This document shows positions 8,504 to 63,368 of a stretch of 64,000 nt of DNA, in pieces. Source of the DNA: a virus (taxonomy: Duplodnaviria; Caudoviricetes); the IMG/VR virus record IMGVR_UViG_3300031669_005479, positions 64,001 through 128,000 of that record. One strand, given 5' to 3'. Positions within the stretch are counted from its first letter, which is position 1; the number at the start of each line of letters is the position of its first letter. The notes below the pieces were generated by a model. The model saw nothing but the letters and a program-made list of their open reading frames with translations. It made no database searches and was not told the origin of the DNA. Both the position numbers and the translations under genes were made by a program.

Positions 8504-8511
8504 ATAAATAC
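8504..8511 (-). promoter_or_regulatory. GTATTTAT putative late promoter
   Basis: 15 nt upstream of ATG 8488. Confidence 0.7.
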
Positions 8512-8548
8512 TTATTGGATTTGAATTTACTTCCAACTTAGTAAAAAT

Positions 8549-8574
8549 AAAAAAAGGAACTGCAGTAGTTCCTT
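8549..8574 (-). terminator. Intrinsic terminator
   Basis: 8-bp stem AAGGAACT/AGTTCCTT followed by a U-run on the minus strand. Confidence 0.7.
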
Positions 8575-8600
8575 GGTGTATTGCTTTTACATATTTTCAA

Positions 8601-8846
8601 TTAAATCGAATAGTCATAAGTATCCCTTAAGTCCCAAACATATTTAAAATCTTGATCACCATTTGGAAATCCAAAATGCCAAACACTTCCAACCATCCAA
8701 ATCCGTCTAATTCTCCAATTTGGTTTGCCCAAATCTTTACTATTTATTGATTGTCCAACATAAAATTCTGTTGATGATATTTCGTCAATTATTAATGGTG
8801 TTGTGACATCGAAAGACTGTATATTAAAATCACTACTATCAAACAT
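8601..8846 (-). CDS. Small conserved phage protein (start revised to ATG 8846)
   Basis: YVGQS...WRIRRI...G...YVWDLR pattern; the track start at 8870 overlaps the GTATTTAT motif. Confidence 0.6.
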   Translation of the reverse strand: MFDSSDFNIQSFDVTTPLIIDEISSTEFYVGQSINSKDLGKPNWRIRRIWMVGSVWHFGFPNGDQDFKYVWDLRDTYDYSI

Positions 8847-8860
8847 ATTATTATTTTTAT

Positions 8861-8868
8861 ATAAATAC
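8861..8868 (-). promoter_or_regulatory. GTATTTAT putative late promoter
   Basis: 14 nt upstream of ATG 8846. Confidence 0.7.
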
Positions 8869-8908
8869 AAATAATATTGATAAAATGACTATGATTTATC
8901 AAATACTA

Positions 8909-9241
8909 TCACAACAAATATTTTAAAAATCCAAATTTTTTTCTTGTTTTCAAATAATTTGGATTATTTTGATTTGCATACGCCTCCCTTTCAAAACTAA
9001 TATTCATATATGCATTTCCAAATGGTAATCTTAATAACCATTCAACAAAATACCACATATAAAAAAATATACACAGTAGTTCTTTTTGTTGCATCCAATG
9101 AATTTCTTCATGATTAATTGTAGATGGGTTTATTGGATATGGTTGTTCTTTTACATAAATTCCGAATGGATATAATGTTATTGCAATTACATCTTCAGAG
9201 ACAAAGAATTTTAGTAATCCACTTATTTTTTTTATTTTCAT
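8909..9241 (-). CDS. Small HExxH membrane-associated metallopeptidase-like protein
   Basis: ITLYPFGIY, NHEEIH, ISFEREAY motifs. Confidence 0.65.
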   Translation of the reverse strand: MKIKKISGLLKFFVSEDVIAITLYPFGIYVKEQPYPINPSTINHEEIHWMQQKELLCIFFYMWYFVEWLLRLPFGNAYMNISFEREAYANQNNPNYLKTRKKFGFLKYLL

Positions 9242-9262
9242 AACATTTTATTATTTTTTACA

Positions 9263-9643
9263 TTAGCCTTGTGTAATACTAATATACGCATTGGGATATA
9301 TAGAAGCAACAGTAATTGTTGCTGTTCTTGGACCGAGAGATGATGTAACTGTTACCGTAAATCCTCCAGTTCCAGTGCCGCTAGAAGAACTAAGTGTACA
9401 CCATGTTTGATTAGATGTCGCAGCCCAACTAATAGTTGGGTCTGTTGTTACCAACACATCGTTTAAACTAGTTGGAAGTCCATTTAATGCAAAAGTAATG
9501 CTTGTGGGTGAAACAGTCAAAGTATTTAATAATACCGTAAATGTCACGCCATCAATTGTATTGATATTGGCGGCTAACACCCCATTTATTGATGCTACGT
9601 TAGAATCTGTTACTCCTGCTATACTCGATACTGTATTACTCAT
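9263..9643 (-). CDS. BACON-domain virion protein
   Basis: LTVSPTSITF...W.ATSNQTWCTLSSSSGTG...TVTV....PRTATITV matches the BACON pattern; N-terminal I.GV repeats. Confidence 0.8.
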   Translation of the reverse strand: MSNTVSSIAGVTDSNVASINGVLAANINTIDGVTFTVLLNTLTVSPTSITFALNGLPTSLNDVLVTTDPTISWAATSNQTWCTLSSSSGTGTGGFTVTVTSSLGPRTATITVASIYPNAYISITQG

Positions 9644-9655
9644 TGTTTCAAATAT

Positions 9656-11164: not shown

Positions 11165-11213
11165 AACATGAATATTTTCATAATATATTATTTAGGTGTA
11201 TTATTATTACTAC

Positions 11214-12107: not shown

Positions 12108-12134
12108 TTTTTTATATTTTATTGTTTAATATTA

Positions 12135-14219
12135 TTATGATGTAAATGTTGATTTAACGTAATACGATGCGCTGCTAGCTAAATTTATTGGCATACTAGA
12201 TACACTAGCATTAATTGTAATGTAACTACCATTGCATGTTAGTGTAACATTTGTTCCACCACTTAATGTTTTAAATTGTATACTATTGTTACTTATACCA
12301 GTATATATCGTTCCATTTCCAGTCCCTAAATTTGTTGCACCAGTAATTCCACCACCAGATGCTGTAGCATATGTTAATTCGTGTGTAGCATTATCATAAA
12401 ACACCGCATTTGATTTGCTTGCATTGGTTAATCCAGAAATATATGTTTTCCCCCTTATGCAAAGTTTTTCATTATCAAACTCACCGTAAATCAACGATTT
12501 GTTTGGGTAATTTGCAACATATAGTTTATTTGAACCCATTTCATTATATCCAGAACCATTACCAATTGCAACATTATTTGTACCACCAGTATTACTGAAT
12601 AATGCAGTAAAACCAATAGCAATATTATTATTTCCAGTTGTATTATAGTATAGTGCTTGATATCCATTAGCAATATTAAAACATCCAGAAGTATTGTTAT
12701 ATAGTACGCTCGTCCCATTAGCAATATTATTATTTCCAGTTGTATTATAGTATAGTGCTTGATACCCATTAACAATATTATAACTTCCAGAAGTATTGTT
12801 ATATAGTACGCTCGTCCCATTAGCAATATTATAACTTCCAGTTGTATTGCAGTTTAGTGCACTAAACCCATTAGCAATATTATTATTTCCAGTTGTATTA
12901 TAGTATAGTGCTTGATATCCATTAGCAATATTAAAACATCCAGAAGTATTGTTATATAGTACGCTCGTCCCATTAGCAATATTATAATATCCAGTTGTAT
13001 TACTGAATAATGCCCTAGTCCCATTAGCAATATTATTATTTCCAGTTGTATTATAGTATAGTGCTTGACATCCATTAGCAATATTATAACATCCAGAAGT
13101 ATTGTTATATAGTACGCTCGTCCCATTAGCAATATTATTATTTCCAGTTGTATTATAGTATAGTGCTTGATATCCATTAGCAATATTATAACATCCAGAA
13201 GTATTACTGTTTAGTGCTAGATATCCCAAACCAATGTTATTGTAACCACAAGTTGTTTTAGCGAGTGCTTGGTATCCCAAACCAATGTTATAGTAACCAC
13301 TTATCAGACCACATCCAATTGCACATTGACCAATAGCAATATTATGCCCATCACTACTATTACTAAAATATAGTGCTCGATATCCCAATGCAATATTATT
13401 ACTACTTGTTGTAATCGATTTACCTGCATCGCATCCAAACAAAATATTATCAGTTGCAGTTGTTAATCCAGTTGGAATATTTTTACAGGTATATACAACA
13501 TCATTCGGCGTAACCACAACCGAACCGCTAGTATCCGCATTAATTGTAATATAGTTACCATTACATGTTAGATTAATATTAGTTCCACCACTCAATGTTT
13601 TTAGTTGAATATTGCAATTACTCAAACCAGTATATATTGCCCCACTTCCCGTTCCTAAGTTTGTTACACCAGTAACTGTGATAGTTGGTGTTGGCGTTAA
13701 TTCAATTGCACCATTAATCGAATTTCTACAAAGCAATTTGCCACTACCCGTTGGTGTATTTAGTATTGCCAAACTAGGAACTATGACCGAATTACAATAC
13801 GTATTTGCACCAATTTCAACACCATTTAGACCAACAATTGTTGCATTTGTGTTTCCACTAAAAATTATATTATTATATCCACCAATAATATTAGCACCGC
13901 ATGAACAACTAGTATTACCACAACCAATTGTAACGCTATTGGTACATAGTGCGACTGCACCATTACCAATACTTATTGATGAATTACCACAACTAAATGA
14001 ATTTGAACCAATTTGTAGTGTTTTTTCTGTGTGACCTGCATTAAAAATTGTTTCACCACAAATTCGATATCCACTATTTGAATCAATTTCACCGTGAATT
14101 CCACAAATAACTGTACAACCACCTAAATGCAACACATCTGTACATCCCGTTTGATTGTATGTTTGTATAAATTGTTCATCCCTTAAATGTGGTCTATTAC
14201 TATATTTCCAATTTTCCAT
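12135..14219 (-). CDS. Fibre/adhesin protein with a 17-aa beta-roll repeat tract
   Basis: About 17 NIANG..AL..NT[TS]G repeats; two GATNLGTG modules. Confidence 0.8.
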   Translation of the reverse strand: MENWKYSNRPHLRDEQFIQTYNQTGCTDVLHLGGCTVICGIHGEIDSNSGYRICGETIFNAGHTEKTLQIGSNSFSCGNSSISIGNGAVALCTNSVTIGCGNTSCSCGANIIGGYNNIIFSGNTNATIVGLNGVEIGANTYCNSVIVPSLAILNTPTGSGKLLCRNSINGAIELTPTPTITVTGVTNLGTGSGAIYTGLSNCNIQLKTLSGGTNINLTCNGNYITINADTSGSVVVTPNDVVYTCKNIPTGLTTATDNILFGCDAGKSITTSSNNIALGYRALYFSNSSDGHNIAIGQCAIGCGLISGYYNIGLGYQALAKTTCGYNNIGLGYLALNSNTSGCYNIANGYQALYYNTTGNNNIANGTSVLYNNTSGCYNIANGCQALYYNTTGNNNIANGTRALFSNTTGYYNIANGTSVLYNNTSGCFNIANGYQALYYNTTGNNNIANGFSALNCNTTGSYNIANGTSVLYNNTSGSYNIVNGYQALYYNTTGNNNIANGTSVLYNNTSGCFNIANGYQALYYNTTGNNNIAIGFTALFSNTGGTNNVAIGNGSGYNEMGSNKLYVANYPNKSLIYGEFDNEKLCIRGKTYISGLTNASKSNAVFYDNATHELTYATASGGGITGATNLGTGNGTIYTGISNNSIQFKTLSGGTNVTLTCNGSYITINASVSSMPINLASSASYYVKSTFTS
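12550..13397. repeat. 51-bp coding tandem repeat (17 aa), partly alternating A/B units
   Basis: Near-identical CCATTAGCAATATTAT... units; A = NIANGYQALYYNTTGNN, B = NIANGTSVLYNNTSGC[YF]. Confidence 0.9.
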
Positions 14220-14240: not shown

Positions 14241-14248
14241 ATAAATAC
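14241..14248 (-). promoter_or_regulatory. GTATTTAT putative late promoter
   Basis: 21 nt upstream of ATG 14219. Confidence 0.7.
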
Positions 14249-14320: not shown

Positions 14321-15232
14321 CTATTTTTGTTTATTTACTGCTTCAATTATCTTATTTATATCAAAAACATTCACAGTATCATAAGGAAAGGCTTGTATTT
14401 GCCCATCAATTGTAAATTTATCTAAATATGAAAATTTATTTAACTCTCTCACATACTCTGCATTTGGTGTAATATTTATGTGTTCTGGATAACCAAAAAC
14501 TTCTGGTTTATTACCTATCCAAACAACGGTGCTCTGCAAATTCAATGCTGCTGCAACATGCTGTGCAAACGAATCTATAAATAATCTTTTACTACTTAAA
14601 GGAAAAACTGCATACAGTTCTCTAAATGGAAGTGTCAACGCCTCAACGCCTTGCAATACAGGTTGTTCTGGTGATTTTATATGCAATATTCTATAGGACT
14701 TGCTGTAGTAATTTACGAGTTCTTGTGCTATTTCAATTGGCATATCTCTAAACCAAGATTTCTTGCTATATTGTGTATTTGGACTTCCACCATGTGTTTG
14801 CAATAACATTATTGGCTTACCATCTGGTTTAATTTTATCTCTTGCTATTTCTAATTCACGTGGATTTATATATATTTTTGGTTTATACCCATCGTATGGA
14901 ATGTTATACATATCGCACCAAGACTGCGTAAGATGTTTTCTTTGTAAAATATGATCTTCTGTATGATATACTTCCTGACGAAAAATTTTAGTGTTTTCAT
15001 TAATATAGTCATCATAAAAGTATTGCATCTGCCCAAAAGTATAAAAACGCCAAACATCTGGGTTATAAAAAAATGGCCCATCCCATGCAGTCACAACAAT
15101 TAATTTATATTCTGGATATGCTTTTTTTATTGCACGACATACTGCTGTCGCTGAAACTTGCTTACCATGTCCTCCTTCTGAATGAAAAATTACAAATTTA
15201 TCATTAGGATTTATTGATTTATCGTTTTCCAT
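14321..15232 (-). CDS. GT-B fold glycosyltransferase (GT9/heptosyltransferase-like)
   Basis: EGGHGKQV start, WDGPFFYNPDV, LFIDSFAQHVAAAL...STVVW...P.VFGY pattern. Confidence 0.75.
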   Translation of the reverse strand: MENDKSINPNDKFVIFHSEGGHGKQVSATAVCRAIKKAYPEYKLIVVTAWDGPFFYNPDVWRFYTFGQMQYFYDDYINENTKIFRQEVYHTEDHILQRKHLTQSWCDMYNIPYDGYKPKIYINPRELEIARDKIKPDGKPIMLLQTHGGSPNTQYSKKSWFRDMPIEIAQELVNYYSKSYRILHIKSPEQPVLQGVEALTLPFRELYAVFPLSSKRLFIDSFAQHVAAALNLQSTVVWIGNKPEVFGYPEHINITPNAEYVRELNKFSYLDKFTIDGQIQAFPYDTVNVFDINKIIEAVNKQK

Positions 15233-15275: not shown

Positions 15276-15283
15276 ATAAATAC
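15276..15283 (-). promoter_or_regulatory. GTATTTAT putative late promoter
   Basis: 43 nt upstream of ATG 15232. Confidence 0.65.
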
Positions 15284-23626: not shown

Positions 23627-24733
23627 TTAATTTGTAAATGTTAATGAATAACCAACAGTACTTGTTTGATAATTACTAATATAAAACTCATAAGAAATTG
23701 CAGACCAACAAGAATTTGGAGAATTTACTAATATTGCCGTAGGAGAATTAAATAATCCACCAGGTATTGATTCAGTATTGGTTGTCGGAGCATTTGAACC
23801 ATACCATTTAGTCTTAGTATTACCAGCAGGGATAGCAAGCCAAACATATTTTGTTGCCACATTATAGTTAACTGTAACATTTCCGCTACTAATACATACA
23901 CATTTAGTACCACCTGTCAACAATGTTGAACTTGCAATTGGTTGTGTATTGCTACTACCATAGAAATATGGGTAAATACCACATACTGGAATGTTCACTG
24001 TGGGTGAAATTCCTGCAGAACAACAGGTCATTCCACCAATACTTCCATCACTTTTTAATGGATATTGACCTGCGGAATAACTAACATTAAGCGAAATATT
24101 ATGACATCCAAATTGAATTTGATGTGGCTGCAATGCAATTGAATTGCACAGTGATGATGATACTGCACAACACGTAGAACCATTATCGGCAGTATAATTA
24201 TATGCCGTTGGTAATCCAGTTCTAACTGAGGTTCCACCACAATACACAGGATTTACGCTGCCTTGATTATATATTGCGCATGTTGTAAATACACAACCAG
24301 TTCCAACTTCCAATGGATTTGTCGCAGATGTTATTGATAATGTTACATAGTTTGGAGTACAAATTGGACTTAATGTAGGTGAAACAATCTGTTCAATAAT
24401 ACATGACAAGGATTCACCAACAATTGGAGTACCTGCAGGTAATCCACCAACACTACATGTTGTTGGAGAAGAACCATTATAAATTGTTGAACCGCCAGAT
24501 ACTGACGATAACGCTAAACGAATTTTATTTGATGCATTATCATAGGTTAACACATACCCATCCGTTGCAGGATTTGCACCATCAGCAGTAATTATAACAT
24601 TACTACCATTTCCATCACTTAACGTTAATCCGCTGGTAGATAAAATTTGAGTTTGACCCGATAATGCCAATTCACTCCCGTCAAGTTGTTTAAATTGTAT
24701 ATTATCAAGATTTGGACGACTAAAGAATGCCAT
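23627..24733 (-). CDS. Cys-rich modular structural protein, first gene of the fibre array
   Basis: RPNL...QFKQ...L.LSG.T N-motif; 16 Cys in 368 aa by my count. Confidence 0.7.
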   Translation of the reverse strand: MAFFSRPNLDNIQFKQLDGSELALSGQTQILSTSGLTLSDGNGSNVIITADGANPATDGYVLTYDNASNKIRLALSSVSGGSTIYNGSSPTTCSVGGLPAGTPIVGESLSCIIEQIVSPTLSPICTPNYVTLSITSATNPLEVGTGCVFTTCAIYNQGSVNPVYCGGTSVRTGLPTAYNYTADNGSTCCAVSSSLCNSIALQPHQIQFGCHNISLNVSYSAGQYPLKSDGSIGGMTCCSAGISPTVNIPVCGIYPYFYGSSNTQPIASSTLLTGGTKCVCISSGNVTVNYNVATKYVWLAIPAGNTKTKWYGSNAPTTNTESIPGGLFNSPTAILVNSPNSCWSAISYEFYISNYQTSTVGYSLTFTN

Positions 24734-24825: not shown

Positions 24826-24833
24826 ATAAATAC
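24826..24833 (-). promoter_or_regulatory. GTATTTAT putative late promoter
   Basis: 92 nt upstream of ATG 24733, just downstream of a terminator. Confidence 0.65.
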
Positions 24834-24899: not shown

Positions 24900-25036
24900 A
24901 TATTAATTTAAATCTTATAAACTAAATCTATCTTGTTTACGTGCTTTTCTTCGAAGTTCATTTACTTCACGAAGTGCATTAGGATTAAATCTTTCACGCC
25001 TAACCACACTAACAAGATGATTAAATTCATTTTCAG

Positions 25037-25122
25037 TAGCGGGAGAGAAAGTCGAATTCTCACTTGCATTAGATGTCTCAAGGTTATGAGCCTTGCGTGT
25101 TAGCCATTTACACCATCCCGCA
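25037..25122 (-). tRNA. tRNA with CAU anticodon (Met/fMet-like), atypical, no encoded CCA
   Basis: TGCGGGA TG GTGT AAATGGCTA ACAC G CAAGG CTCATAA CCTTG AGACATCTAATGCAAGT GAGAA TTCGACT TTCTC TCCCGCT A: acceptor, D, anticodon and T stems all pair. Confidence 0.88.
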
Positions 25123-25175
25123 ATATATTTTTTAAACCATTTTCTTCTTTTAATGAACGTTGTCCTAGGACGATA

Positions 25176-25206
25176 CAAACATACAATACATTTTTTAAAT
25201 ATGCAA
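25176..25206 (-). promoter_or_regulatory. Bacteroidota-type promoter of the tRNA
   Basis: TTG-N20-TATGTTTG about 55 nt upstream of the tRNA. Confidence 0.7.
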
Positions 25207-25253
25207 GCATTTTTTTAAAAAAAATGAAAAATTTTATATTCGGTCTTGGAATA

Positions 25254-25261
25254 ATAAATAC
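25254..25261 (-). promoter_or_regulatory. GTATTTAT putative late promoter (tRNA unit)
   Basis: Intergenic; context TCTTCGTATTTAT identical to that at 15276. Confidence 0.6.
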
Positions 25262-25301
25262 GAAGAAATTCTAAAAAAGTTACAATTTTTTATAAAAAAT
25301 A

Positions 25302-32649: not shown

Positions 32650-32680
32650 CAAATGTATTATACATTTCATATAAATACAA
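32650..32680 (-). promoter_or_regulatory. Composite SSB promoter: TTG-N20-TACATTTG overlapping GTATTTAT (32671-32678)
   Basis: Both motifs read directly; palindrome AAATGTA-tta-TACATTT overlaps the -7 element. Confidence 0.7.
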
Positions 32681-34132: not shown

Positions 34133-34149
34133 GTATTTATCATAAATAC
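34133..34149. promoter_or_regulatory. Palindromic back-to-back late promoter GTATTTAT-C-ATAAATAC
   Basis: Perfect inverted pair between divergent genes 34115(-) and 34158(+). Confidence 0.75.
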
Positions 34150-38663: not shown

Positions 38664-38879
38664 TTAGTATTGTTCTCTCAATAACATGCGTCCAGATTTA
38701 TCAACAAAAATTTTATCAACTCTTTCGATAAGTCCTTCACGTTCATCAAGAACGGCTTTCTTTGCATCATTAATTTTTGCATCAACTTGAGGTTCATCAA
38801 CGAAATTATCAAGTGCCTTTTCTACATTTTTTTCCATAGTATCCATAATCATTTCATATAAATACTGTGTTACATTCAT
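38664..38879 (-). CDS. Hypothetical protein
   Basis: 71 aa ORF in the operon. Confidence 0.6.
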   Translation of the reverse strand: MNVTQYLYEMIMDTMEKNVEKALDNFVDEPQVDAKINDAKKAVLDEREGLIERVDKIFVDKSGRMLLREQY

Positions 38880-39535
38880 TTTGACAAAATGGAAACAAGA
38901 TATCTTTTAAGTAGAATGAAATTAGGAAATATTTTATAATATTTTAGATATTCATCGCCTTCATTATCAAAATATGAATATTCTGTCCTTTGCTTCAAAT
39001 ATTCAACCATTTTTTCAACATTAAATTGAAAAAATTCATACATTTTTAGATTGATACTTACAATAGTTTCCTTATTCTCGCCAAAATTTTTATTTTCAAA
39101 TAGTAAATACACCATTTCATTTTTGTAGTGGTATGTCGCTTTAATATTCTTAGGAATAATATCTAAAAAATCTTCCAAATCTTTTATTTGAAAAAAAACT
39201 GGGTCTAAGTTTGTAAACATATACTTTGGAATATAGTATAGTGATGGTGCATCATTTACAAAGGAATTTATTCCTTTAACATGTGATGCCTTACCTTCTT
39301 CAAAACTACATTCCCAATACAATTCATTTGTAATTATTTTTCTTTTGAGAATATCAGCATTTTGAATTATCTGATTATCTGGGTTACAATTTTTCATGAA
39401 TGACCATCCAACATATAGTGTTGGGAGTGACATATCCAACTTTTCATACTCAATTGGTTCATTATAATAGTTAACATAATCGACCTTAGTGTGATTAACC
39501 AATTCTTTTTCGTAAACAATATTTGCGATTTTCAT
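38876..39535 (-). CDS. Hypothetical protein
   Basis: 219 aa ORF, LPTLYVGW motif. Confidence 0.65.
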   Translation of the reverse strand: MKIANIVYEKELVNHTKVDYVNYYNEPIEYEKLDMSLPTLYVGWSFMKNCNPDNQIIQNADILKRKIITNELYWECSFEEGKASHVKGINSFVNDAPSLYYIPKYMFTNLDPVFFQIKDLEDFLDIIPKNIKATYHYKNEMVYLLFENKNFGENKETIVSINLKMYEFFQFNVEKMVEYLKQRTEYSYFDNEGDEYLKYYKIFPNFILLKRYLVSILSK

Positions 39536-47964: not shown

Positions 47965-47972
47965 ATAAATAC
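47965..47972 (-). promoter_or_regulatory. GTATTTAT putative late promoter
   Basis: 14 nt upstream of ATG 47950. Confidence 0.7.
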
Positions 47973-48360: not shown

Positions 48361-50916
48361 TTATTTTTTTCCTGATTTTCCTTGATATGCAGATTGTTGT
48401 TTTTCAATAGCAACTACAGTGTCATATACTTTATGCATGAAAACTTCTCCATTCATATTTAATGTAATGTCATTGCTTAATTGAACTTTTCCACCATTTT
48501 CAAATTCAACTTTTAGTGGAGATTTTAATAGATTTGCAAGTTCTGCAAACATTCCACCACCTTTAATATTTGCTTTTGAAATTGATTCAACAGCATTTTG
48601 AACAGCAATAAAATCATCTTTACTTCCTGACATTACTGATTTTATATTTGCAAATCCATCTCCAACATTTTTTATTGCGTCAGCATGTTTTGCAATGCGA
48701 CCAATTGCAAATGATAGTCCAATTGCAGCAGGTAATGACATTGTTGAAACTCCAAATGCTGCCGACATCATACCAATCCCCGATGCTACTTTAATAAAAT
48801 CATCACCAGCACCTTTAATGTTTTTAAACATATCGCCTAATCCAGTGCCCATATATCCAATACCTGCTGCTGCAATACCAACAGCACCACCTATCATCAA
48901 TAGTGCAGCACCCAATGCTAATAATACTGGTGCTGCAGGAGCAGCAACTGCTGCAACAATACCAATACCCACCGCTGCAGCTGGAAATGTAATTGCAAGT
49001 GTCATTGCAATACTTTTTAGATTTTCTGCCTGATCTTTTGTTAACTTACTCATGGAATCTGCAAGTTTTGATATTCCTTCCGCTGCAAGTCCAACTCCAG
49101 CACCAAGTCCAATTGCGGCTGCACCAATACCAGCACCAGTTCCTAATGATTTTAAACCCTGTCCTGCTGCAAGTCCACCTGCACCTTTTTTTATATTACC
49201 TGCCTTAGTAAACCATTTACTTGCACTCTTACCCATTCCACCACCTTCTTTTGCTATAGAAGATGATTTACCAAACCCAATTGACTTGAATGCACCACCT
49301 AGTTTTCCGCTTTCTAAAAATTTATCTGCAACCCTACCCAATCCAAACGTAACTGTTTTCCAAGCAACCGCTGCTCCTGCTAATATTGCAGCAGTTGCTG
49401 CCAATCCCCCCCATCCTTTTGTTGCAAGGTCTGCAAGCCATTTAACGGCAGGTAATAAATATTTATTAATTCCATTTAATACAGGTAGTAAGGATGCCTT
49501 TAATTCTTGAATAGTTGCCTTAAATGTTTCATCAAATGTTTGTGCGTTTTTTGCACGTTCCTCCAAACTCACCTGTTCTTTAGCAAAAGCTTTTGCTTGA
49601 TCTTTTGTTAGATTACTAATATCTTCCATTCTACCAGCAAGTTCAACTTGAAATCTACCCGATTTTGCATTAAACACTGCAGCACCTTGAACTAATTCTT
49701 TTTCTCTATCAGTTAAACCCAATCCCTGTAATTGCTGTGCCATTTTACTAATATCAAATGCACGTTCTGCCATTTCAGTCATTTTTTCGGTGGTAATGCC
49801 CAACGCTTTACCAGCAAATGCTAATCTATCACGGTCTGCAGGACTAATAAATTTTTCAAACGTTCCATCACTAGTTTTTCTTAATGTAACTAAATTTTTA
49901 GTTAATCCAGCAATTTTTTCTTGTAATTTTTTGGGGTCATTACGTGCAAAATATAGTGTTTGAAACATATCAAGTTTTGCAAATTCACCTCCCATTACTT
50001 GTAGTTTAGCAACCATATTAATTGCGCCATCCAAGGTTCTTGCAGTATCTGCTGCATTTAATGCATCGCTAATATCAATTTTAAATTTTTCGGCATATTG
50101 TGCCATTTCAGCAAAACCCTTAACTCCTTGCTGAAAATTATATGTATTTAATTTTTTAAAATTATCATTTATGTTTTTTAATACTTTGGTTGTATTAACG
50201 CCCATTCTTTCCGATGAATCTACAACCCCCTGTACGTAATTCATTGTACTTTTTGCATCAAATCCCATTAATTCAAATTGCGCACCTAGTTTTGTTGCTT
50301 GCTCAATACCTAATCCAGTACCCTTTCCAATCATAGTAATGTCACTAAGCATTTCAGATGTCATTGCACGTGCCCTACCAGTTTCATCCGCATATCCTTC
50401 TTGAATCTTTTGTAAATCTTCAAGGTTTGCACCAAGTCTTGCAGCAAAAATCGCACTATTTTCAAATGAACTTCGCATCATTTCTGCCTTAGTACCTGAC
50501 ATGCCAAGGTTAAGAACTGTTGATCTAATTATTTTATCTTGTGATTGTAAATATGTCCAAAGTCCTTTTACTGCACCACCTAGTTGTCTGGTTAAGTCAA
50601 CTGCTGTTTGTCTAGCTTTATTTCCTTCCCTAATTGTCTTATTAAATTCCTTTTCTTTATCAATAAGACTTTTTTGTTCATTTCTTAGTTGTTCTACTAA
50701 TTTAAGTGCATCCTTTTCACCAGCAAGATACGATTTAGTTGCTTCAGCAAGTAATTTTTGATTATTTGCAATTTGTTCAGAAAGAAGTCTGCTTTGTTCT
50801 TGCTGACTAACAACACCCTTTTTACCATTAATTTCGTCTTGAATTAATTTATTTAGTGCTGATTGTTGCTCACGCATTTTTTCTAACTCACTTAAACTTT
50901 TATGTGTATCTGCCAT
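48361..50916 (-). CDS. Tail tape measure protein
   Basis: 851 aa, helical and Ala/Gly-rich with hydrophobic repeats; directly downstream of the chaperone pair, upstream of baseplate genes. Confidence 0.88.
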   Translation of the reverse strand: MADTHKSLSELEKMREQQSALNKLIQDEINGKKGVVSQQEQSRLLSEQIANNQKLLAEATKSYLAGEKDALKLVEQLRNEQKSLIDKEKEFNKTIREGNKARQTAVDLTRQLGGAVKGLWTYLQSQDKIIRSTVLNLGMSGTKAEMMRSSFENSAIFAARLGANLEDLQKIQEGYADETGRARAMTSEMLSDITMIGKGTGLGIEQATKLGAQFELMGFDAKSTMNYVQGVVDSSERMGVNTTKVLKNINDNFKKLNTYNFQQGVKGFAEMAQYAEKFKIDISDALNAADTARTLDGAINMVAKLQVMGGEFAKLDMFQTLYFARNDPKKLQEKIAGLTKNLVTLRKTSDGTFEKFISPADRDRLAFAGKALGITTEKMTEMAERAFDISKMAQQLQGLGLTDREKELVQGAAVFNAKSGRFQVELAGRMEDISNLTKDQAKAFAKEQVSLEERAKNAQTFDETFKATIQELKASLLPVLNGINKYLLPAVKWLADLATKGWGGLAATAAILAGAAVAWKTVTFGLGRVADKFLESGKLGGAFKSIGFGKSSSIAKEGGGMGKSASKWFTKAGNIKKGAGGLAAGQGLKSLGTGAGIGAAAIGLGAGVGLAAEGISKLADSMSKLTKDQAENLKSIAMTLAITFPAAAVGIGIVAAVAAPAAPVLLALGAALLMIGGAVGIAAAGIGYMGTGLGDMFKNIKGAGDDFIKVASGIGMMSAAFGVSTMSLPAAIGLSFAIGRIAKHADAIKNVGDGFANIKSVMSGSKDDFIAVQNAVESISKANIKGGGMFAELANLLKSPLKVEFENGGKVQLSNDITLNMNGEVFMHKVYDTVVAIEKQQSAYQGKSGKK

Positions 50917-50935: not shown

Positions 50936-50943
50936 ATAAATAC
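50936..50943 (-). promoter_or_regulatory. GTATTTAT putative late promoter
   Basis: 19 nt upstream of ATG 50916. Confidence 0.7.
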
Positions 50944-51155: not shown

Positions 51156-52061
51156 CTAGGTGCTTGGGAAAAAAAAATCCAGACCAATTGTTAAATTAGC
51201 TTCAAATGTATACCCATCCTTTGTTTTAAATTCATATGCCATATCAACATCAGGTGCAACATCAATGATTTTTCTACGAATTGCGTATGCATCTAGTGCT
51301 GGCATTGCATCTACAAATTTATCAACATATGTTCTGTCCATATTTCCACCAATTGAAATAATATGTGACTTTAATTTCATTGTATTATATTCACTAAATT
51401 CTTGGTTATATACATCTTTTAATGCTTCGGCTTTTTTAAATATGATATCTTCTTCACCTGAAGTGAGCAATCTAATTATAGCAGTTTTTTTACGCATGGG
51501 TAATTCAACACTAAAATATCCCCTTTCATCTGGAAGTTCCTTAATTTCCCTATACTTTAATTTTAATAGGTTAACTGATGCCTTAAATGGTGTATTTGTT
51601 CTAGGGTCATTAACTTGAACAGTGTATTCTGAACCATAACTTGAGCTGCGTAAAAACAAAATTATTGCATTACGGTCACCTGCCAACAGATTTTCAGGAT
51701 TAACACCTGCGGTTTTTATTTTTCTTTTTAATAGTAAATTTAATACAGTACCAGAATCAATTAGTGATGGAGTTGTAAGTAAGTCCTCATCTTTTGATGT
51801 CATATACTCAACATTTACTTCAGAAATTCCATTAGAATAAAATAAACCCTTTGATGGTAATTTAATTATTTCATATGCAATCATCAAATCAGGGTCAGTT
51901 TCAGTTGACATCGTTCTTTCAAAATTACTTTGATTAAATTCTGGGGTCTTTGGTGCTAAATTTATTGGACTACCAATTTGTTGGTTATTTGAGTCTTCTT
52001 TGTATTTTTTTAATACATCTCCAATTTGTTCCTTTTGTGGTAATTGTGCTCCGTCTTCCAT
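51156..52061 (-). CDS. Tail/baseplate-hub assembly chaperone (T4 gp26-like)
   Basis: IKLPSKGLFY, YMTSKDEDLLT, LLAGDRNAII.FLR..SYG, LTIGLDFFFP. Confidence 0.8.
   Translation of the reverse strand: MEDGAQLPQKEQIGDVLKKYKEDSNNQQIGSPINLAPKTPEFNQSNFERTMSTETDPDLMIAYEIIKLPSKGLFYSNGISEVNVEYMTSKDEDLLTTPSLIDSGTVLNLLLKRKIKTAGVNPENLLAGDRNAIILFLRSSSYGSEYTVQVNDPRTNTPFKASVNLLKLKYREIKELPDERGYFSVELPMRKKTAIIRLLTSGEEDIIFKKAEALKDVYNQEFSEYNTMKLKSHIISIGGNMDRTYVDKFVDAMPALDAYAIRRKIIDVAPDVDMAYEFKTKDGYTFEANLTIGLDFFFPST
51169..51177 (-). other. Putative -1 ribosomal slippery site (U9 in GAU UUU UUU UUC)
   Basis: Four codons before the UAG of 51156..52061; -1 frame reads FPKHLAGEYKKMVNEE... Confidence 0.75.
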
Positions 52062-52084: not shown

Positions 52085-52092
52085 ATAAATAC
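52085..52092 (-). promoter_or_regulatory. GTATTTAT putative late promoter
   Basis: 23 nt upstream of ATG 52061. Confidence 0.7.
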
Positions 52093-52207
52093 TGTGATTT
52101 AAAAAAATAATAAAAAAATTCAAGATTTTTATTTTATACTCGTATTACTACATGTATGTCAGATTATAAAATGATAATAATTAAAGTAAATTTTTAACTC
52201 AAATTAT

Positions 52208-54097
52208 ATGGGTAGGGATAGAATAAAGGAAAATGAAGATTACAATTCAATGCTTTTTACTAATAATAGTAATCAAATTTCAAAATTTAAGGAAGAAATT
52301 GGTAAACTTTTACCTAATGACATAAAAATTAAAGCAAAAAATGAAAGTCAGGTTAAGTTAATCAATTCAATAAAAAATAATGAAATTACTATTTGTGCTG
52401 GTCCTGCAGGAACTGGAAAAGCACAACCATTAGATTCATTAATTTTATCTGAAAATGGTTTTATTAGAATGGGTGATATTACATTAAAAGATAAAATTTT
52501 TTCAAAATCTGGAAATTTAACAAATGTTATTGGTATTTTTCCACAAGGAGAAAAAGATATATATAAAATAACTTTTAGTGATAATAGTGTAGTTGAATGT
52601 TGTGATGAGCATTTATGGTTGGTTAAATCAGCAAAAGACAGAGAAAATAAAAAAAACTTTAATGTTAAAGAATTGGTCGATATTAAAAAGGATTTCATTC
52701 TAAAAGGAAATGGTCGTAAAAATTATTCAATACCAATAACAAAACCAATTAATTTTTCTAGTAAAGAAGTTACCATTAATCCCTATTTAATGGGAATTTT
52801 AATTGGTGATGGTTGTTTTGTATCACCCAATGTTAGATTAACAACAGTTGATAATGAAATTTTAAATAAATTTAATGATTTATTAGATGATAATTATATT
52901 CTAAGTCAACAAAATTCTGATTTAATTAGTTATAATATAATATTTAAAAATTCTAAAGATTCTAAAAATAGATTTAATGATAATTTAATTCCATTTACCA
53001 CATTAATAGCGAATTATGATTTATTGGGATTAAAATCTAATGAAAAATTTATTCCTAATGATTATAAATTTAATTCGGTTGAAAATAGAATTGAATTATT
53101 GCAAGGATTAATGGATAGTGATGGTACGATTGAAAATAAAAGTAGGAGTTTATCGTTTTCAACATCATCAAAAAAATTAATTGATGATTTTAAATTTATT
53201 GTTGAATCTTTAGGTGGTGTTGTTAACAAGCTACGTATAAAAAAGGGTGGGTATAAAAAAAATAGCATTTACATCGCATGTAAGGAAAGTTATACTTATT
53301 CATTTAGATTACCCAATAATATTATACCATTTAAATTATCAAGGAAATTAATTCTCTTTAAAGAAAAAACCAAATATCTTCCAATAAGATATATTAAAAA
53401 TATTGAATATGTTGGAAAAAAGGAGGCACAATGTATAATGGTCGATGATGAGTCACATACTTATTTAACAAATGATTTAATTGTGACACATAATACTTTC
53501 GTGGCAATTGCATATGCATTAAGTTTATTAAGAAAGCCAAGTAATCACTATAAGAAAATATATTTGGTTAAGTCGGTTACGACACTAAAAGGTGAAGAAA
53601 TTGGTTTTCTAAAGGGTGATTTGAAAGAAAAAATCGAACCATTTATGTGGAGTTTTACAATAAATATGGAAAAAATTTTAAATGATACAATAATTAAGGA
53701 ATTGGTTAATCGAGATGTTATCAGATATTTTCCACTAGCATATATGCGTGGTGCGAGTCTTGATGATTGCATCATTATTGCAGATGAAATGCAAAACGTT
53801 ACGCTTGATAATTCACGAACACTTCTTACTCGTATTGGAAGTAACAGTAAATTAATTTTACTTGGAGATATTAATCAGATTGATATGAAAAATAAGCGTG
53901 AAAGTTCTTTAGAAATCATACTAAATATATTTGATAATACAGATAGTATTGGTGTAATTAAAATGTCTGAAGATGATACTAATGTTAGAAATCCACTTAT
54001 AACAATAGTTGAAGATAAATATAAAGAATATTTTACTTTAAATAAAATTAGTGGTCACAAAAAAATGTTATTGATTGAAGATAATGGAAGAGAATAA
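52208..54097 (+). CDS. phoH: PhoH-family ATPase with intein
   Basis: GPAGTGK|TF, GFLKGDLKEK, PLAYMRG, IIADEMQN, LTRIG..SK..LLGD..Q.D. Confidence 0.93.
   Translation: MGRDRIKENEDYNSMLFTNNSNQISKFKEEIGKLLPNDIKIKAKNESQVKLINSIKNNEITICAGPAGTGKAQPLDSLILSENGFIRMGDITLKDKIFSKSGNLTNVIGIFPQGEKDIYKITFSDNSVVECCDEHLWLVKSAKDRENKKNFNVKELVDIKKDFILKGNGRKNYSIPITKPINFSSKEVTINPYLMGILIGDGCFVSPNVRLTTVDNEILNKFNDLLDDNYILSQQNSDLISYNIIFKNSKDSKNRFNDNLIPFTTLIANYDLLGLKSNEKFIPNDYKFNSVENRIELLQGLMDSDGTIENKSRSLSFSTSSKKLIDDFKFIVESLGGVVNKLRIKKGGYKKNSIYIACKESYTYSFRLPNNIIPFKLSRKLILFKEKTKYLPIRYIKNIEYVGKKEAQCIMVDDESHTYLTNDLIVTHNTFVAIAYALSLLRKPSNHYKKIYLVKSVTTLKGEEIGFLKGDLKEKIEPFMWSFTINMEKILNDTIIKELVNRDVIRYFPLAYMRGASLDDCIIIADEMQNVTLDNSRTLLTRIGSNSKLILLGDINQIDMKNKRESSLEIILNIFDNTDSIGVIKMSEDDTNVRNPLITIVEDKYKEYFTLNKISGHKKMLLIEDNGRE
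52421..53494 (+). mobile_element. Class 3 intein (358 aa) with LAGLIDADG endonuclease in the PhoH P-loop
   Basis: Starts AQPLDS (Ala1), CCDEHLW, MGILIGDG, LLQGLMDSDG, AQCIMV, ends IVTHN|T. Confidence 0.93.
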
Positions 54098-57174: not shown

Positions 57175-57927
57175 ATGAAAGAAGTTGAAAATGGTGCACA
57201 ATATTTTGCTGAAAGGGAAGAACAAGCAGTTATTGATTATATAAATTCAAATTCTCTGGAAGAGAAAAATAAAATTTATAATGAAATACTGATTGAGCCA
57301 TTCAGAAAAATGATACAATCTATTTTAAGAAGATACCCCATCCATATCGGTAATTACGATATGGTTGAGGTTGAATCTAATGCTCTGACACATCTTATTG
57401 AGCATATGGTCAAATTTAATCCAGATAAAATAACTAAATCTGGAAATAGAACAAAAGCATTTAGTTATTGTCAAACAATTATTAGAAATTATTATAAAGA
57501 CCATAGCAAGAAAAGTTATACTGAAAAAAAAATTAATTTATCATATGATGATTATGCCGATGAAATTAATGAAAATAGCGATTATTCATATGAAATTGAA
57601 ATTGAAACACAACATCAACTTGAAAAATTAATCGATTCAGTAATCATGAAAATCGAAAACATGATTACTGAAGAATCGACATTAAAAAGAAATGAAATTA
57701 TTGTTGGTGATGCAATTATTAATGTATTGAAAAATTGGCATATTTTATTTATGGAGGAAACACCAGAAGGAAAATATTCAAAAAGGGTTACCAATAAATT
57801 TGCTAAAAATAAAATATTGCTATTTTTAAAGGAACAAACAGGACTAACAACAAAAGAAATTAGAATTGGCATTAAACCATTTAAGGAAATATATTTTGTT
57901 GAAAAGATGGACTATTTGGATGACTAA
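57175..57927 (+). CDS. Phage sigma factor (gp55-like, probable late sigma)
   Basis: Region 2-like KFNPDK...KAFSYCQTIIRNYY. Confidence 0.75.
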   Translation: MKEVENGAQYFAEREEQAVIDYINSNSLEEKNKIYNEILIEPFRKMIQSILRRYPIHIGNYDMVEVESNALTHLIEHMVKFNPDKITKSGNRTKAFSYCQTIIRNYYKDHSKKSYTEKKINLSYDDYADEINENSDYSYEIEIETQHQLEKLIDSVIMKIENMITEESTLKRNEIIVGDAIINVLKNWHILFMEETPEGKYSKRVTNKFAKNKILLFLKEQTGLTTKEIRIGIKPFKEIYFVEKMDYLDD

Positions 57928-58018: not shown

Positions 58019-58026
58019 GTATTTAT
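58019..58026 (+). promoter_or_regulatory. GTATTTAT putative late promoter
   Basis: 21 nt upstream of ATG 58048; plus-strand copy ahead of a plus-strand gene. Confidence 0.7.
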
Positions 58027-58047: not shown

Positions 58048-58440
58048 ATGCCAAGACCACAGAGACGAAAATTAGAATTTAATGAAGATAGTGTTAATAA
58101 ACTGCTTCAAGAAATTTATGATGATACCCATAACATAAGAGCAAAAATTACTAGGCTATTTACTAAGTGGGAAACTAAAGTAAAAGAAAATGGTGAAGTT
58201 GCTGCAATTGGTGACCAAATTGTTAAACTTATTGCTGCGGAAGCAAAAAATCAAGATCAAAAAATCATGTTGCTCCGTTATTTAAAAGAAGTTGTGTTTG
58301 ATAATAAAATTGGTATTACCAGCAGTGCAAATGATAAAAAAACTGATGAGAAAAGTAATGTAACCACTGATAGAAGAAATGAGTTACTCAATTTTGTTGC
58401 AGATGAAATTGAGAAAAAGGAAAGAGAAAAGGGTAGATAA
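58048..58440 (+). CDS. Hypothetical helical protein
   Basis: 130 aa ORF. Confidence 0.7.
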   Translation: MPRPQRRKLEFNEDSVNKLLQEIYDDTHNIRAKITRLFTKWETKVKENGEVAAIGDQIVKLIAAEAKNQDQKIMLLRYLKEVVFDNKIGITSSANDKKTDEKSNVTTDRRNELLNFVADEIEKKEREKGR

Positions 58441-59819: not shown

Positions 59820-59843
59820 ACATAGAATTTAATACTTAATTAT

Positions 59844-60020: not shown

Positions 60021-60022
60021 AA

Positions 60023-60636: not shown

Positions 60637-60638
60637 TT

Positions 60639-61541
60639 ATGTATAATAAACCATATCTACAAAGAAGTAGGCCAAATGAACAGGTACAATCTACGATTAA
60701 TGTAAATAGAACAATATATTATGGCAGGGTTGTTAGTATTGATGACAATACTGATGGTGGTGCTATTAAGGTATTTATACCAGATTTGGATAATTTTACA
60801 TCCGATTCTGATTTGCCTTGGTGTTATCCATTACTGCCAAAATTTTTTCATATATATCCTCAAATTAATGAAGTTGTGCGTATTTTACTTGAAGACAATA
60901 AATTTCCACAAAGAAGTAGGTATTGGTTAGGTAGTGTTATATCACAACCGCATAAAATTGGTTTTGATTCATGTAAAACTGCGTTATCTACAACTAATTA
61001 TGGTGCTGTTCAGCCAGATAGAGCACCCAGCACATATCCAGATGCACAAGGTGTATATCCACTAAAAACAGATGTGGCACTTGTTGGTAAAGTTAATACT
61101 GACATTATTTTGAGAGATAGTGAGGTTCATATTCGAGCAGGTAAGCATGAAAATGGTAGTGTTTTAAAATTAAATACCACAAATCCTGCAGATATTAGCA
61201 TGACATACGAAATAAAACCAAGCATTTCTGACACTAAAACAGTAACATACTATAGTAATACCGTTATTATGAGTGATAAAATTGCCATAATTTCCCATAC
61301 TGGTGATCCCCAATATAGGGCAGCAAGAGTAACTGCTGCAGATAGAACCGATATGTTTAATACTGGACATCCTATGGTGCGTGGCGATGTGCTTATTGAA
61401 GCACTAAATGTAATTAAGGACGCACTAATAAATCATATTCACGGATATTCGGCAATATCTGCAGAAAAAACAGAAGTAATTACAAAATTAGAAAAACTTG
61501 AGTTGGAATTAATGTTACAACCAAATATTGTAATTAATTAA
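60639..61541 (+). CDS. Baseplate central spike/hub protein (gp5/gpV OB-fold)
   Basis: YYGRVVSIDD...IKVFIPDLD...LPWCYPL...P..NE.V.I...RYWLG. Confidence 0.8.
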   Translation: MYNKPYLQRSRPNEQVQSTINVNRTIYYGRVVSIDDNTDGGAIKVFIPDLDNFTSDSDLPWCYPLLPKFFHIYPQINEVVRILLEDNKFPQRSRYWLGSVISQPHKIGFDSCKTALSTTNYGAVQPDRAPSTYPDAQGVYPLKTDVALVGKVNTDIILRDSEVHIRAGKHENGSVLKLNTTNPADISMTYEIKPSISDTKTVTYYSNTVIMSDKIAIISHTGDPQYRAARVTAADRTDMFNTGHPMVRGDVLIEALNVIKDALINHIHGYSAISAEKTEVITKLEKLELELMLQPNIVIN

Positions 61542-61557
61542 TTTTTTTGTAGATTTG
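61528..61557 (+). promoter_or_regulatory. Bacteroidota-type promoter of the exonuclease
   Basis: TTG-N19-TAGATTTG, 3 nt before ATG 61561. Confidence 0.55.
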
Positions 61558-62355
61558 TCCATGATTGATCTTCAAATACCGAATGAACTATATACATCAT
61601 TTAATGATGTTACGTATTATGATGAACCGCATAAGTATTACCTTAATGGAAATGAATTAATTTCAGTAACAACTATTATTCATAGGTATCAAGAAGAATT
61701 TGATGTAGAATTTTGGTCTTATAGTAAGGGAATTGAGTTTAATCTAAGCCCAGAAATTATTAAGAGGGCATGGAATTTCATAAATAAAAAGGGAACAATT
61801 AAGGGTTCTGCAATACATAATTATAGTGAAAACTTATTTCAAAATAAAATATTCGAATATCCAAAACAATTGATATTAAATGAATTTGGTTTTGATCCAA
61901 TATTACCTGAATTTAATATTACAAAAAAACACGTAGATAAATTTTATTCTGATGTTCATGGTAAGTTAATACCAATTAGAACTGAAATGATTATATATGA
62001 CCGTGAGTCATTTATTGGAGGGATGGTCGATATGTTGTTTTATAATGTAAAATGGAAGTGTTTTCAGATTTTCGATTGGAAAACTAATAAAAAATTTACT
62101 ACTGAAAATAAGTCAAAATATTTATTAAATGATTTATTTGTGCTGGAAGATACCGATTTAACTATATACTCATTACAACTTAGTTTATATAAATATATTA
62201 TAGAAAAAAATACTGGAATTAAACTTGGAAAATCATATGTTGTTTGGTTTTCACACAATAATTCGTCATATAAAATTATTGAAACCATAGATATGACATA
62301 TTACATAAAAAAAATTATTGAGAATAGGATATCTGAATTATCTATACGTAGTTAA
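61555..62355 (+). CDS. PD-(D/E)XK exonuclease (RecB/Cas4-like phage family)
   Basis: ISVTTII, KGSAIH, GGMVDMLF...FDWKT, YSLQLSLY. Confidence 0.85.
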   Translation: MSMIDLQIPNELYTSFNDVTYYDEPHKYYLNGNELISVTTIIHRYQEEFDVEFWSYSKGIEFNLSPEIIKRAWNFINKKGTIKGSAIHNYSENLFQNKIFEYPKQLILNEFGFDPILPEFNITKKHVDKFYSDVHGKLIPIRTEMIIYDRESFIGGMVDMLFYNVKWKCFQIFDWKTNKKFTTENKSKYLLNDLFVLEDTDLTIYSLQLSLYKYIIEKNTGIKLGKSYVVWFSHNNSSYKIIETIDMTYYIKKIIENRISELSIRS

Positions 62356-62356
62356 T

Positions 62357-62387
62357 AAAAAAGCCACCTAAAATGAGTGGCTTTTTT
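62357..62387. terminator. Bidirectional intrinsic terminator
   Basis: AAAAAAGCCAC-N9-GTGGCTTTTTT between convergent genes. Confidence 0.85.
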
Positions 62388-62405
62388 AATAAAATCGTAT
62401 AACTT

Positions 62406-62897
62406 TTACAAGTTAAGTATACATTTGTAAGGTTGTAGTTCAAGTGTAATATTAGTTAATTCATCTGAGCCATAATCGTTTTCACCGAAATCAATGCTAA
62501 CAATTTGACATTTTTCTAGTGTCCATTTTTCGATTTCAACACCTGTTGGGTCTAATGAAGTCAAAATAATGTTTTTTTGATATCCTGCTGCATAACCCAT
62601 ACGACCAGTAAGCGATTCTGCACCCAAACGAACCCATTCCATTAAAATTTGTGATGTTGATGGACCTATTGGGTCAAGAAATGTAACTGACACGGTATCC
62701 CACGTATATCTACCCATAACGTATGTTTGTTCATTCATGTATGGAATAGCAACGCTATTTATTTTCATTGATGGTCTTTTAAATTTTTGAACTGCCCACA
62801 CTTCAACACCTATTGTACTATCAAATTTTGCGAAAAATCGATTTACACGTTTTGGTTCATATTCGAAGGGCATACCCCTCATCATTTCTCCTGCCAT
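62406..62897 (-). CDS. Tail tube protein (T4 gp19-like)
   Basis: EPKRVNRF, KRPS, GR.TW..V.VTF.DPI.PS..Q..MEW, DYGSDEL..I.L.L. Confidence 0.9.
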   Translation of the reverse strand: MAGEMMRGMPFEYEPKRVNRFFAKFDSTIGVEVWAVQKFKRPSMKINSVAIPYMNEQTYVMGRYTWDTVSVTFLDPIGPSTSQILMEWVRLGAESLTGRMGYAAGYQKNIILTSLDPTGVEIEKWTLEKCQIVSIDFGENDYGSDELTNITLELQPYKCILNL

Positions 62898-62944
62898 TTT
62901 ATTTTATTGTTTAATTTTGTTTAACTTATTTTTATGCGTTTTTT

Positions 62945-62952
62945 ATAAATAC
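62945..62952 (-). promoter_or_regulatory. GTATTTAT putative late promoter
   Basis: 47 nt upstream of the tail tube ATG. Confidence 0.65.
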
Positions 62953-62978
62953 TTGTGTATTTCAAAACAAATTATAAA

Positions 62979-63329
62979 TTATTCTGGTAATTTACCTGTT
63001 CTTTGATATGACCTAAATTCTTCGGTGGTTAAACTTTCAATGCTTCTTTTAGGCTTTAATTGTATCTGAGATTCGTTAATGATTTTATTATTGTCATCAA
63101 TATTGTTAACGAATTTCTGTTCATCAATGATTACTTCGCTATCGTTGATTTCATGATTATCTACAATTTTTTCTTCATCAATAGTTTTTTCTTCATTAAT
63201 AACTTCTTGTTCATCAAAAGAATTAACTTCAATTGGAATTTTAATGTGAACTGCTTCTGGTTGTGTTTCTATAATAACGTTATCTACTGATTCGTTAATA
63301 CCTTCTTCATTTTTTTTATCTTTTGCCAT
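62979..63329 (-). CDS. Acidic low-complexity hypothetical protein
   Basis: I[ND][ED] repeats; C-terminal FRSYQRTGKLP. Confidence 0.65.
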   Translation of the reverse strand: MAKDKKNEEGINESVDNVIIETQPEAVHIKIPIEVNSFDEQEVINEEKTIDEEKIVDNHEINDSEVIIDEQKFVNNIDDNNKIINESQIQLKPKRSIESLTTEEFRSYQRTGKLPE

Positions 63330-63360
63330 TTTATGATATTTTAATGTTTTATTATTTATG

Positions 63361-63368
63361 ATAAATAC
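63361..63368 (-). promoter_or_regulatory. GTATTTAT putative late promoter
   Basis: 31 nt upstream of ATG 63329. Confidence 0.65.

Follow-up and report, generated by a model that had tools for sequence, protein, structure and literature searches.

An oriented AT-rich box ahead of virion genes in a phage contig, very probably a late promoter, and a divergent sigma factor as its probable reader

The 64,000-nucleotide stretch analysed here (the window) comprises bases 64001-128000 of a 202,814-bp IMG/VR contig from a giant uncultured phage (IMGVR_UViG_3300031669_005479). It raises the question of what the short AT-rich word GTATTTAT, found repeatedly just ahead of genes, does there, and of which protein reads it. 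The contig has a GC content of 30% and includes genes for a T4-type baseplate, tail tube and tail sheath. No nucleotide match to the window was found among GenBank phages; complete relatives measure 320-365 kb and have terminal repeats. A first-pass annotation took the word for a late-promoter motif resembling the reverse complement of the T4 late promoter, with a gp55-like sigma encoded in the same window. The distribution and conservation of the word, hereafter the L box, indicate that it is very probably the core of a phage-specific late promoter. Its reader is probably P0001, the protein encoded at 57175-57927. Box and sigma are a real feature, and most likely they represent a variant form of late promoter and late sigma of the T4 type.

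All 15 intergenic copies given in the first-pass annotation were verified, each on the strand stated (Table 1). Dinucleotide shuffles of the window contain 10.75 ± 3.3 copies, where the real sequence has 24, a count that none of 100 shuffles reached. Eight further window copies are intragenic (12009, 17046, 18275, 20428, 22212, 59031, 59307 and 60771), six of them antisense, and look like background. Across the whole contig, 62 of the 82 copies fall within the ~8% of the sequence that is intergenic or lies in the first 60 nucleotides (nt) of open reading frames (ORFs), which were called crudely for this count, and 61 of these 62 face a same-strand downstream gene. In sense-strand upstream segments 54 copies were observed, where an order-3 Markov model trained on those AT-rich segments themselves expects 3.8 ± 2.0. 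Among 8-mers upstream of genes the word also ranks first in enrichment (47 genes versus 3.2 expected). The strand-aware check of enrichment proposed with the first-pass annotation thus shows strong over-representation upstream of starts and in the direction of the gene. The intergenic-to-coding ratio is 3.1 for the exact word and 0.1-0.5 for one-mismatch variants, and none of the 24 one-base variants is enriched comparably; therefore all eight positions matter, the 5' G included. Taken together, the shuffles, the one-mismatch variants and the Markov model rule out chance or AT-rich background as the source of the word. The lack of enrichment among one-mismatch variants also makes the variant TTATTTAT at 7612-7619 (minus) doubtful as a site, although the word itself is present there.

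Box-to-ATG distances in the contig peak at 14-21 nt (median 19 nt), the extremes being 5 and 122 nt. The earlier statement that most sites lie 14-47 nt before the start holds for 12 of the 15; the boxes at 24826 (92 nt) and 32671 (74 nt) lie farther out, and 25254 stands ahead of a tRNA, with no ORF. The extended logo reads T(-14)...a-GTATTTAT-a-nn-AAA, the AAA occupying +3 to +5 after the box. Beyond the T at -14 there is a T-rich tract upstream, and the logo contains no -35-like block. Packed genes inside operons lack the word, which occurs only where there is an intergenic gap.

The tight spacing to the start codon could also be expected of an RNA-level element, that is, a processing site or a translation-initiation enhancer in late mRNA leaders. 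Such a role would suit a host phylum without Shine-Dalgarno sites, in which other leader signals are conceivable, and the entire leader past the box is conserved ahead of the gene at 58048. However, distances from 5 to 122 nt and the absence of the word from packed operon genes argue against it, as do the T at -14 and the T-rich tract, which lie outside any plausible leader. Some sites come directly after terminator hairpins, and in a related clade the box lies 3-4 nt from the ATG, too near for a ribosome-binding signal but fitting a leaderless start. An RNA-level role is thus very unlikely, and a late promoter is the reading pursued below.

The genes behind L boxes encode the tail sheath, portal, large terminase, tail tube, baseplate hub, a virion structural/tail-spike protein and three HNH homing endonucleases. 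Two further promoter classes are present, such that the phage uses at least three: host sigmaA-type, extracytoplasmic function (ECF)-type and the L box. Bacteroidota housekeeping promoters have the form -33 TTTG / -7 TAnnTTTG. The corresponding grammar, TTG-N17-21-TAnnTTTG, precedes many non-structural genes here, among them replication and recombination genes. Genes of this class encode an SNF2 helicase, an SbcCD-like nuclease, a primase, an ATP-grasp protein and the exonuclease at 61555; judged by their promoters, they would be transcribed by the host polymerase and are probably early. The L box differs in having neither the TTTG of the -7 element nor a -33 partner, and forms a separate class. 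The ECF-type class, TGTAACA-N15-CGTAT, has about 15 intergenic occurrences with textbook ECF-sigma spacing, mostly toward the contig ends. It lies ahead of genes for adenylosuccinate synthetase, HAD-type RNA-repair proteins and a T4-type RNA ligase, small genes, and tRNA regions. A canonical ECF sigma (PF04542, 48.6 bits) is encoded outside the window at G000:C1:30685-31347 (minus), in an operon that sits behind a host-type promoter. The Bacteroidota-type promoters and the nearest cultured relative of the 57175 sigma gene, found in Flavobacterium phage vB_FspM_immuto (immuto), show that the host is almost certainly a member of the Flavobacteriia or of another Bacteroidota group.

The box is conserved among relatives. 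In 80 related contigs with a sigma 66-87% identical to P0001, 338 copies of GTATTTAT are intergenic and 63 are coding; for the reversed control word the counts are 60 and 188. Downstream of the sigma gene the box and its leader GTATTTATATGTACTAAAAC are invariant, also in a relative with 40% GC; the stretch from the sigma stop codon to the box is unalignable among relatives. Clades with more distant sigma homologues share the core and differ at the 5' base. The word is CTATTTAT in contigs whose sigma is 32% identical, and in two of these (L092 and L094) the box CTATTTATA lies just 3-4 nt before several ATGs, so that their late mRNAs would be leaderless. The complete genome of immuto encodes a 23%-identical homologue, gp118, and carries [C/A]TATTTATA, counted as [CA]TATTTAT, upstream of 33 genes; its reverse complement precedes 3. 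Among the 33 are the tail spike gene, the baseplate block and the neighbour directly after gp118. The L box is thus strictly oriented, placed just upstream of starts, found ahead of sheath, tube, hub, portal and terminase genes and conserved at orthologous positions, which is the behaviour of the late-promoter element originally proposed. The small early genes of immuto (L091 / NC_055915, 60-78 kb) are preceded by a long repeat of a different kind, ATATTTAGGTATCAATAATTAAAAC, which has no relation to the late box.

In T4 late transcription, gp55 reads TATAAATA together with the co-activator gp33 and the sliding clamp gp45 (PMC7892883). The resemblance of the L box to the reverse complement of the T4 box is literally true, since the template strand of the T4 P23 promoter reads GTATTTATAC in published oligonucleotides (PMC7892883). 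The further suggestion, that the sigma recognises an inverse of the T4 element, is not needed. TATAAATA is almost self-complementary, and TATTTATA aligned in the same direction already fits it at 6 of 8 positions. The two words differ only at the two central bases and share the -12 A and -8 A, which are among the three bases that gp55 flips into pockets (PMC7892883). Upstream of genes in sense orientation, GTATTTAT was counted at 49 genes, TATTTATA at 33 and the T4-type TATAAATA at 5; the sense word on the non-template strand is therefore (G)TATTTAT(a) and not the T4 consensus. The simplest reading of these words is a same-direction box with specificity altered at -10 and -9. The idea that the promoter also fires antisense is contradicted by the orientation of 61 of the 62 sites and by divergent gene pairs, in which each gene has a box of its own on its own strand (34133+/34142-, with several further examples elsewhere in the contig), so that one box is not shared between the two directions.

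The alternative raised at first pass was that a T4-like TATAAATAC is recognised on the template strand, or that the element fires bidirectionally. In its favour, GTATTTATA when reverse-complemented gives TATAAATAC, which is the T4 P23 box plus its flanking C (PMC7892883). Template-strand reading is reported for the sigma-like subunit of the AR9 non-virion polymerase (PMC5449584), and this subunit is the third-best structural match to P0001 (Z score 8.8). In its boldest form the 57175 family would read the template strand and see a true T4-type TATAAATAC, the apparent inversion being a switch of strand with base specificity unchanged. We consider this form highly improbable, and the alternative as a whole equally so, because the sites face their genes, divergent pairs have a separate box on each strand, the same-direction match makes inversion unnecessary, and no phage polymerase of the AR9 kind was detected.

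If the box is read in the gene direction by a sigma, the protein encoded at 57175-57927 is the likeliest candidate. P0001 itself has no match in Pfam or PHROGs, a PDB sequence search with P0001 alone returned no match, and the NCBIfam sigma70-ECF model scores 16.4 bits, below its 42.9 cut-off. Its family comprises at least 671 clusters at 50% identity, and 23 of 69 sampled members match Sigma70_r2 (PF04542) at E <= 0.01 (best 2e-5). Searched against PDB sequences, the family profile finds SigA region 2 with E 0.009 and several other sigmas with E 0.14-0.42. The AlphaFold model of P0001 has a predicted local distance difference test (pLDDT) score of 91. Residues 7-138 form a region-2 domain. 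In an exhaustive structural comparison at the domain level, the best match is T4 gp55 in the late activation complex (7d7d_F; Z score 9.7, rmsd 4.5, 118 of 137 residues), followed at Z 8-9.5 by the region-2 domains of sigB, the AR9 sigma-like subunit, sigK, SigI, RpoS, SigC and sigE, and the top rows are all sigma region-2 domains. Foldseek with the full model yielded weak sigma matches only (E >= 0.05) because the relative placement of the two P0001 domains differs. P0001 is certainly a sigma region-2 protein, and a very divergent member of the sigma-70 family.

Residues 139-250 of P0001 form a separate helical domain that is confidently folded (pLDDT about 90). Searched alone, this domain has no sequence match and no fold match above background; it is not callable as sigma region 4, since its fold matches are weak and mixed. 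In the close clade the C-terminus reads (M/I/T)D(Y/F)(L/F)DD, and it varies across the wider family. A second sigma paralogue follows the first in tandem in L021 (2500-2944 region) and L062, and homologues P0002, P0003 and P0005 carry an in-frame insertion of ~40 residues inside the region-2 domain. These account for long matches that had suggested an intron or intein in the sigma gene of relatives, and Rfam gave no intron. The distant homologue P0148, used as a query, found no viral contig.

Several results weigh against an L-box late promoter read by a gp55-like P0001. The profile that finds SigA gives E 0.82 against gp55 (7d7c_F), which is not significant. The hhalign comparison with T4 gp55 reaches a probability of 26% (E 7e-4, 103 columns, with a common QA(V/I)ID(Y/W) stretch), and in the structural comparison other sigma region-2 domains come within 1 Z unit of gp55, in effect a tie. 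The C-terminal domain scores best with unrelated chains (Z 6.3; sigma-H 5.2). The promoter of the sigma's own plus-strand operon shows no consistent class in 27 relatives, the sole candidate being a weak ECF-like TTCAAGA-N15-CGTAT at 52119-52145. Only 10 of the 82 boxes have a perfect-stem hairpin and T-run within 70 nt upstream, compared with 3% of random positions, so most sites are not classic terminator-promoter junctions. Finally, the contig is estimated to be 66% complete, such that the missing third may encode another reader, and complete relatives encode 2-3 canonical ECF sigmas each besides the P0001 type. A translated search with T4 gp55 found nothing in the contig or in five complete relatives. 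Of the label gp55-like sigma, the sigma-70-family assignment and the nominal leading rank of gp55 among region-2 matches stand; the sequence scores, the ties and the extra 110-residue domain do not bear it out further. P0001 is gp55-like in its predicted fold, and membership of the gp55 family is only weakly established.

Since the contig also encodes an ECF sigma, the 57175 gene is not its sole sigma gene, and we infer rather than observe which sigma belongs to the box. The additional ECF sigmas of relatives and the ~66% completeness mean that another sigma or an activator could read it: one of the canonical ECF sigmas of this phage group, such as that at about 30.7-31.3 kb of the contig, host sigmaA or an alternative host sigma assisted by an activator from the phage, or the product of a gene in the third of the genome that is missing. 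The L box opens with GTAT, like the CGTAT -10 of the ECF-type class, and both words are fused at window position 25254 and genome position 192860. ECF sigmas normally need a -35 element, whereas the L-box logo has none and the ECF-type class has a clear TGTAACA at canonical spacing. The box is also unlike the host -7 consensus TAnnTTTG at the critical TTTG. In addition, immuto has the same core and a homologue of the 57175 protein, yet its complete genome gives no Sigma70_r2 (PF04542) match and hence shows no canonical ECF sigma, which weakens the case for an ECF sigma as the reader. A late promoter with a different reader is thus rather unlikely, and the 57175 sigma remains the probable one.

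The explanation as a whole, a late promoter with the 57175 sigma as reader, is likewise probable. The promoter would be one -10-like box, lacking a -35 partner and read toward the gene on the non-template strand. The predicted start site lies in the AAA run or immediately after it, a few bases past the box, which would leave leaders of ~8-15 nt. Bacteroidota do not use Shine-Dalgarno sites, and such short leaders would therefore suit the host. Searches for a T7-type RNA polymerase and for the polymerase beta-subunit were negative for the contig and for four complete relatives, which leaves the host core RNA polymerase as the likely enzyme; a phage sigma, most likely the 57175-57927 protein, would redirect it to the box. 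Host sigmaA would serve the replication genes and the operon that encodes the ECF sigma, this ECF sigma would then switch on the TGTAACA/CGTAT class, and the 57175 sigma, expressed from its plus-strand operon, would direct core polymerase to L boxes late in infection.

This arrangement resembles T4 in several respects. In both systems a strictly conserved single 8-bp AT-rich -10-like box without a -35 element stands ahead of virion and homing-endonuclease genes, and the phage encodes a small and very divergent sigma that contains a region-2 domain; for P0001, gp55 is the top structural match. The P0001 C-terminus MDYLDD, seen in the close clade only, resembles the gp55 clamp-binding tail SLDFLYEAND. 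Unlike the T4 box, the L box has TT in place of AA at its centre and, in this clade, requires a 5' G. P0001 has 250 residues including its extra 110-residue helical domain, whereas gp55 has about 185 and lacks region 3/4, and the Bacteroidota host has its own unusual sigmaA promoters. The gp45 clamp families PF02916 and PF09116 had no match in the contig, and PF02916 none in five complete relatives, although divergent clamps could escape such a search; gp33 was not searched for. Cascades of phage sigmas are known from SPO1 (gp28, then gp33/gp34) and from phiEco32 and 7-11 (PMC8948821, PMC12276001). There, too, phage sigmas replace the host sigma on host core polymerase and bring about temporal switching, but these sigmas read two-box promoters and are not detectably closer to P0001 in sequence or fold. 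ECF (group 4) sigmas with AAC / CGT promoters are represented by the phage's own canonical ECF sigma and its matching sites, which differ from L boxes in the genes they precede, namely RNA-repair and metabolic genes and tRNA regions in place of virion genes.

No published description of GTATTTAT as a phage promoter was found in the literature, the matches being primers and the T4 template-strand oligonucleotide. To our knowledge, the transcription programmes of Bacteroidota phages are almost unstudied. The analysis delimits the late-promoter word sharply, as TATTTAT(A)nnAAA preceded by a base that depends on the clade, and provides a candidate cognate sigma family with hundreds of members. The three-class promoter map would sort unknown genes of giant Flavobacteriia phages into temporal classes from sequence alone. 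The box also offers a natural experiment in gp55-like base specificity, in which two central positions are changed and the flipped adenines are kept. Immuto, whose host is Flavobacterium sp. LMO8, has the same box core and a sigma homologue and makes the question testable at the bench. A more speculative proposal, which we hold to be somewhat short of probable, is that these proteins are an unrecognised large gp55-like late-sigma family of Bacteroidota phages (at least 671 clusters) in which the fused C-terminal domain replaces activation by gp33 and gp45.

The gene that follows the sigma gene has orthologues in L011-L088 (MPRPxRKKLxFDEESVNKLLQEIYDESHN...), always after the sigma gene and with their own L box and invariant leader. 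Immuto gp117 occupies the same position and has a common N-terminal F..(S/T)V..(L/V)L(Q/K)EIYD motif. An Atlas structure search with a low-confidence model gave a weak DksA-like coiled-coil lead (TM score 0.50), and the protein is a possible polymerase-binding partner. In some relatives a GIY-YIG-like homing endonuclease gene stands behind the same L box and leader (L047:4086-4688, L048:5849-6451, L083:4311-4943 and L073:4832-5395). It shares its first codons (MARPS...) with the small protein whose place it has taken, as though promoter and gene start had been captured together.

The coordinates of the promoter elements and associated genes are collected in Table 1. The box at 38858, absent from the first-pass list, has two in-frame ATGs of the following small ORF 5-11 nt downstream and by its position is probably a sixteenth real site. 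The word at 25254 is probably not a plain L site. Because three promoter-like elements are stacked ahead of it, the tRNA-Met gene might be expressed throughout infection. The G of the box at 32671 doubles as the G of the -33 TTG in a host-type promoter at 32650-32680 (minus). The same sharing occurs at genome positions 178563 and 194499, and the three sites, cTTGTATTTAT-N13-TAnnTTTG, are possible dual early/late promoters.

Table 1 Promoter elements and associated genes in the window (window coordinates).
Feature	Position	Strand	Context
Host-type (A-class) promoter	5489..5518	-	TTG-N19-TATATTTG, ahead of SNF2 helicase gene 3674-5467
L box	8504..8511	-	15 nt before ATG of 7628-8488; hairpin and T-run terminator upstream
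L box	8861..8868	-	Ahead of small ORF, ATG about 8839
L box	14241..14248	-	21 nt before 12135-14219 (virion structural/tail-spike-like); terminator-like hairpin upstream
L box	15276..15283	-	43 nt before 14321-15232
L box	24826..24833	-	92 nt before 23627-24733; strong hairpin and T-run immediately precede
tRNA-Met (CAU)	25036..25122	-	Downstream of stacked E, L and A promoters (region 25036-25284)
Host-type (A-class) promoter	25176..25206	-	TTG-N20-TATGTTTG, upstream of tRNA-Met
GTATTTAT word	25254..25261	-	Overlaps -10 (CGTAT) of ECF-type promoter
ECF-type (E-class) promoter	25259..25284	-	TGTAAC-N16-CGTA, upstream of tRNA-Met
L box	32671..32678	-	74 nt before 31358-32596
L box	34133..34140	+	17 nt before HNH homing endonuclease gene 34158-35282; half of back-to-back pair
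L box	34142..34149	-	26 nt before 32712-34115; other half of pair, GTATTTAT-C-ATAAATAC
L box	38858..38865	-	Just past stop of 38876-39535
L box	47965..47972	-	14 nt before 44660-47950 (1096 aa; no family match)
L box	50936..50943	-	19 nt before 48361-50916 (851 aa)
L box	52085..52092	-	23 nt before 51156-52061 (T4-type baseplate hub protein)
P0001, divergent sigma-70-family protein, 250 aa	57175..57927	+	Candidate L-box reader
L box	58019..58026	+	21 nt before 58048-58440; box and leader GTATTTATATGTACTAAAAC conserved in relatives
Conserved 130-aa helical protein	58048..58440	+	Always adjoins sigma gene
Host-type (A-class) promoter	61528..61557	+	Ahead of exonuclease gene 61555-62355
L box	62945..62952	-	47 nt before 62406-62897 (tail tube)
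L box	63361..63368	-	31 nt before 62979-63329

Two genes have internal endonuclease-like segments. The portal protein gene at G000:C1:164201-167503 (minus; 1100 aa) contains an HNH endonuclease-like segment at residues about 450-535. The PhoH-like ATPase gene at window positions 52208-54097 (+) has a LAGLIDADG / Hom_end domain inside it, at residues about 287-355, and this interruption looks like an intein.

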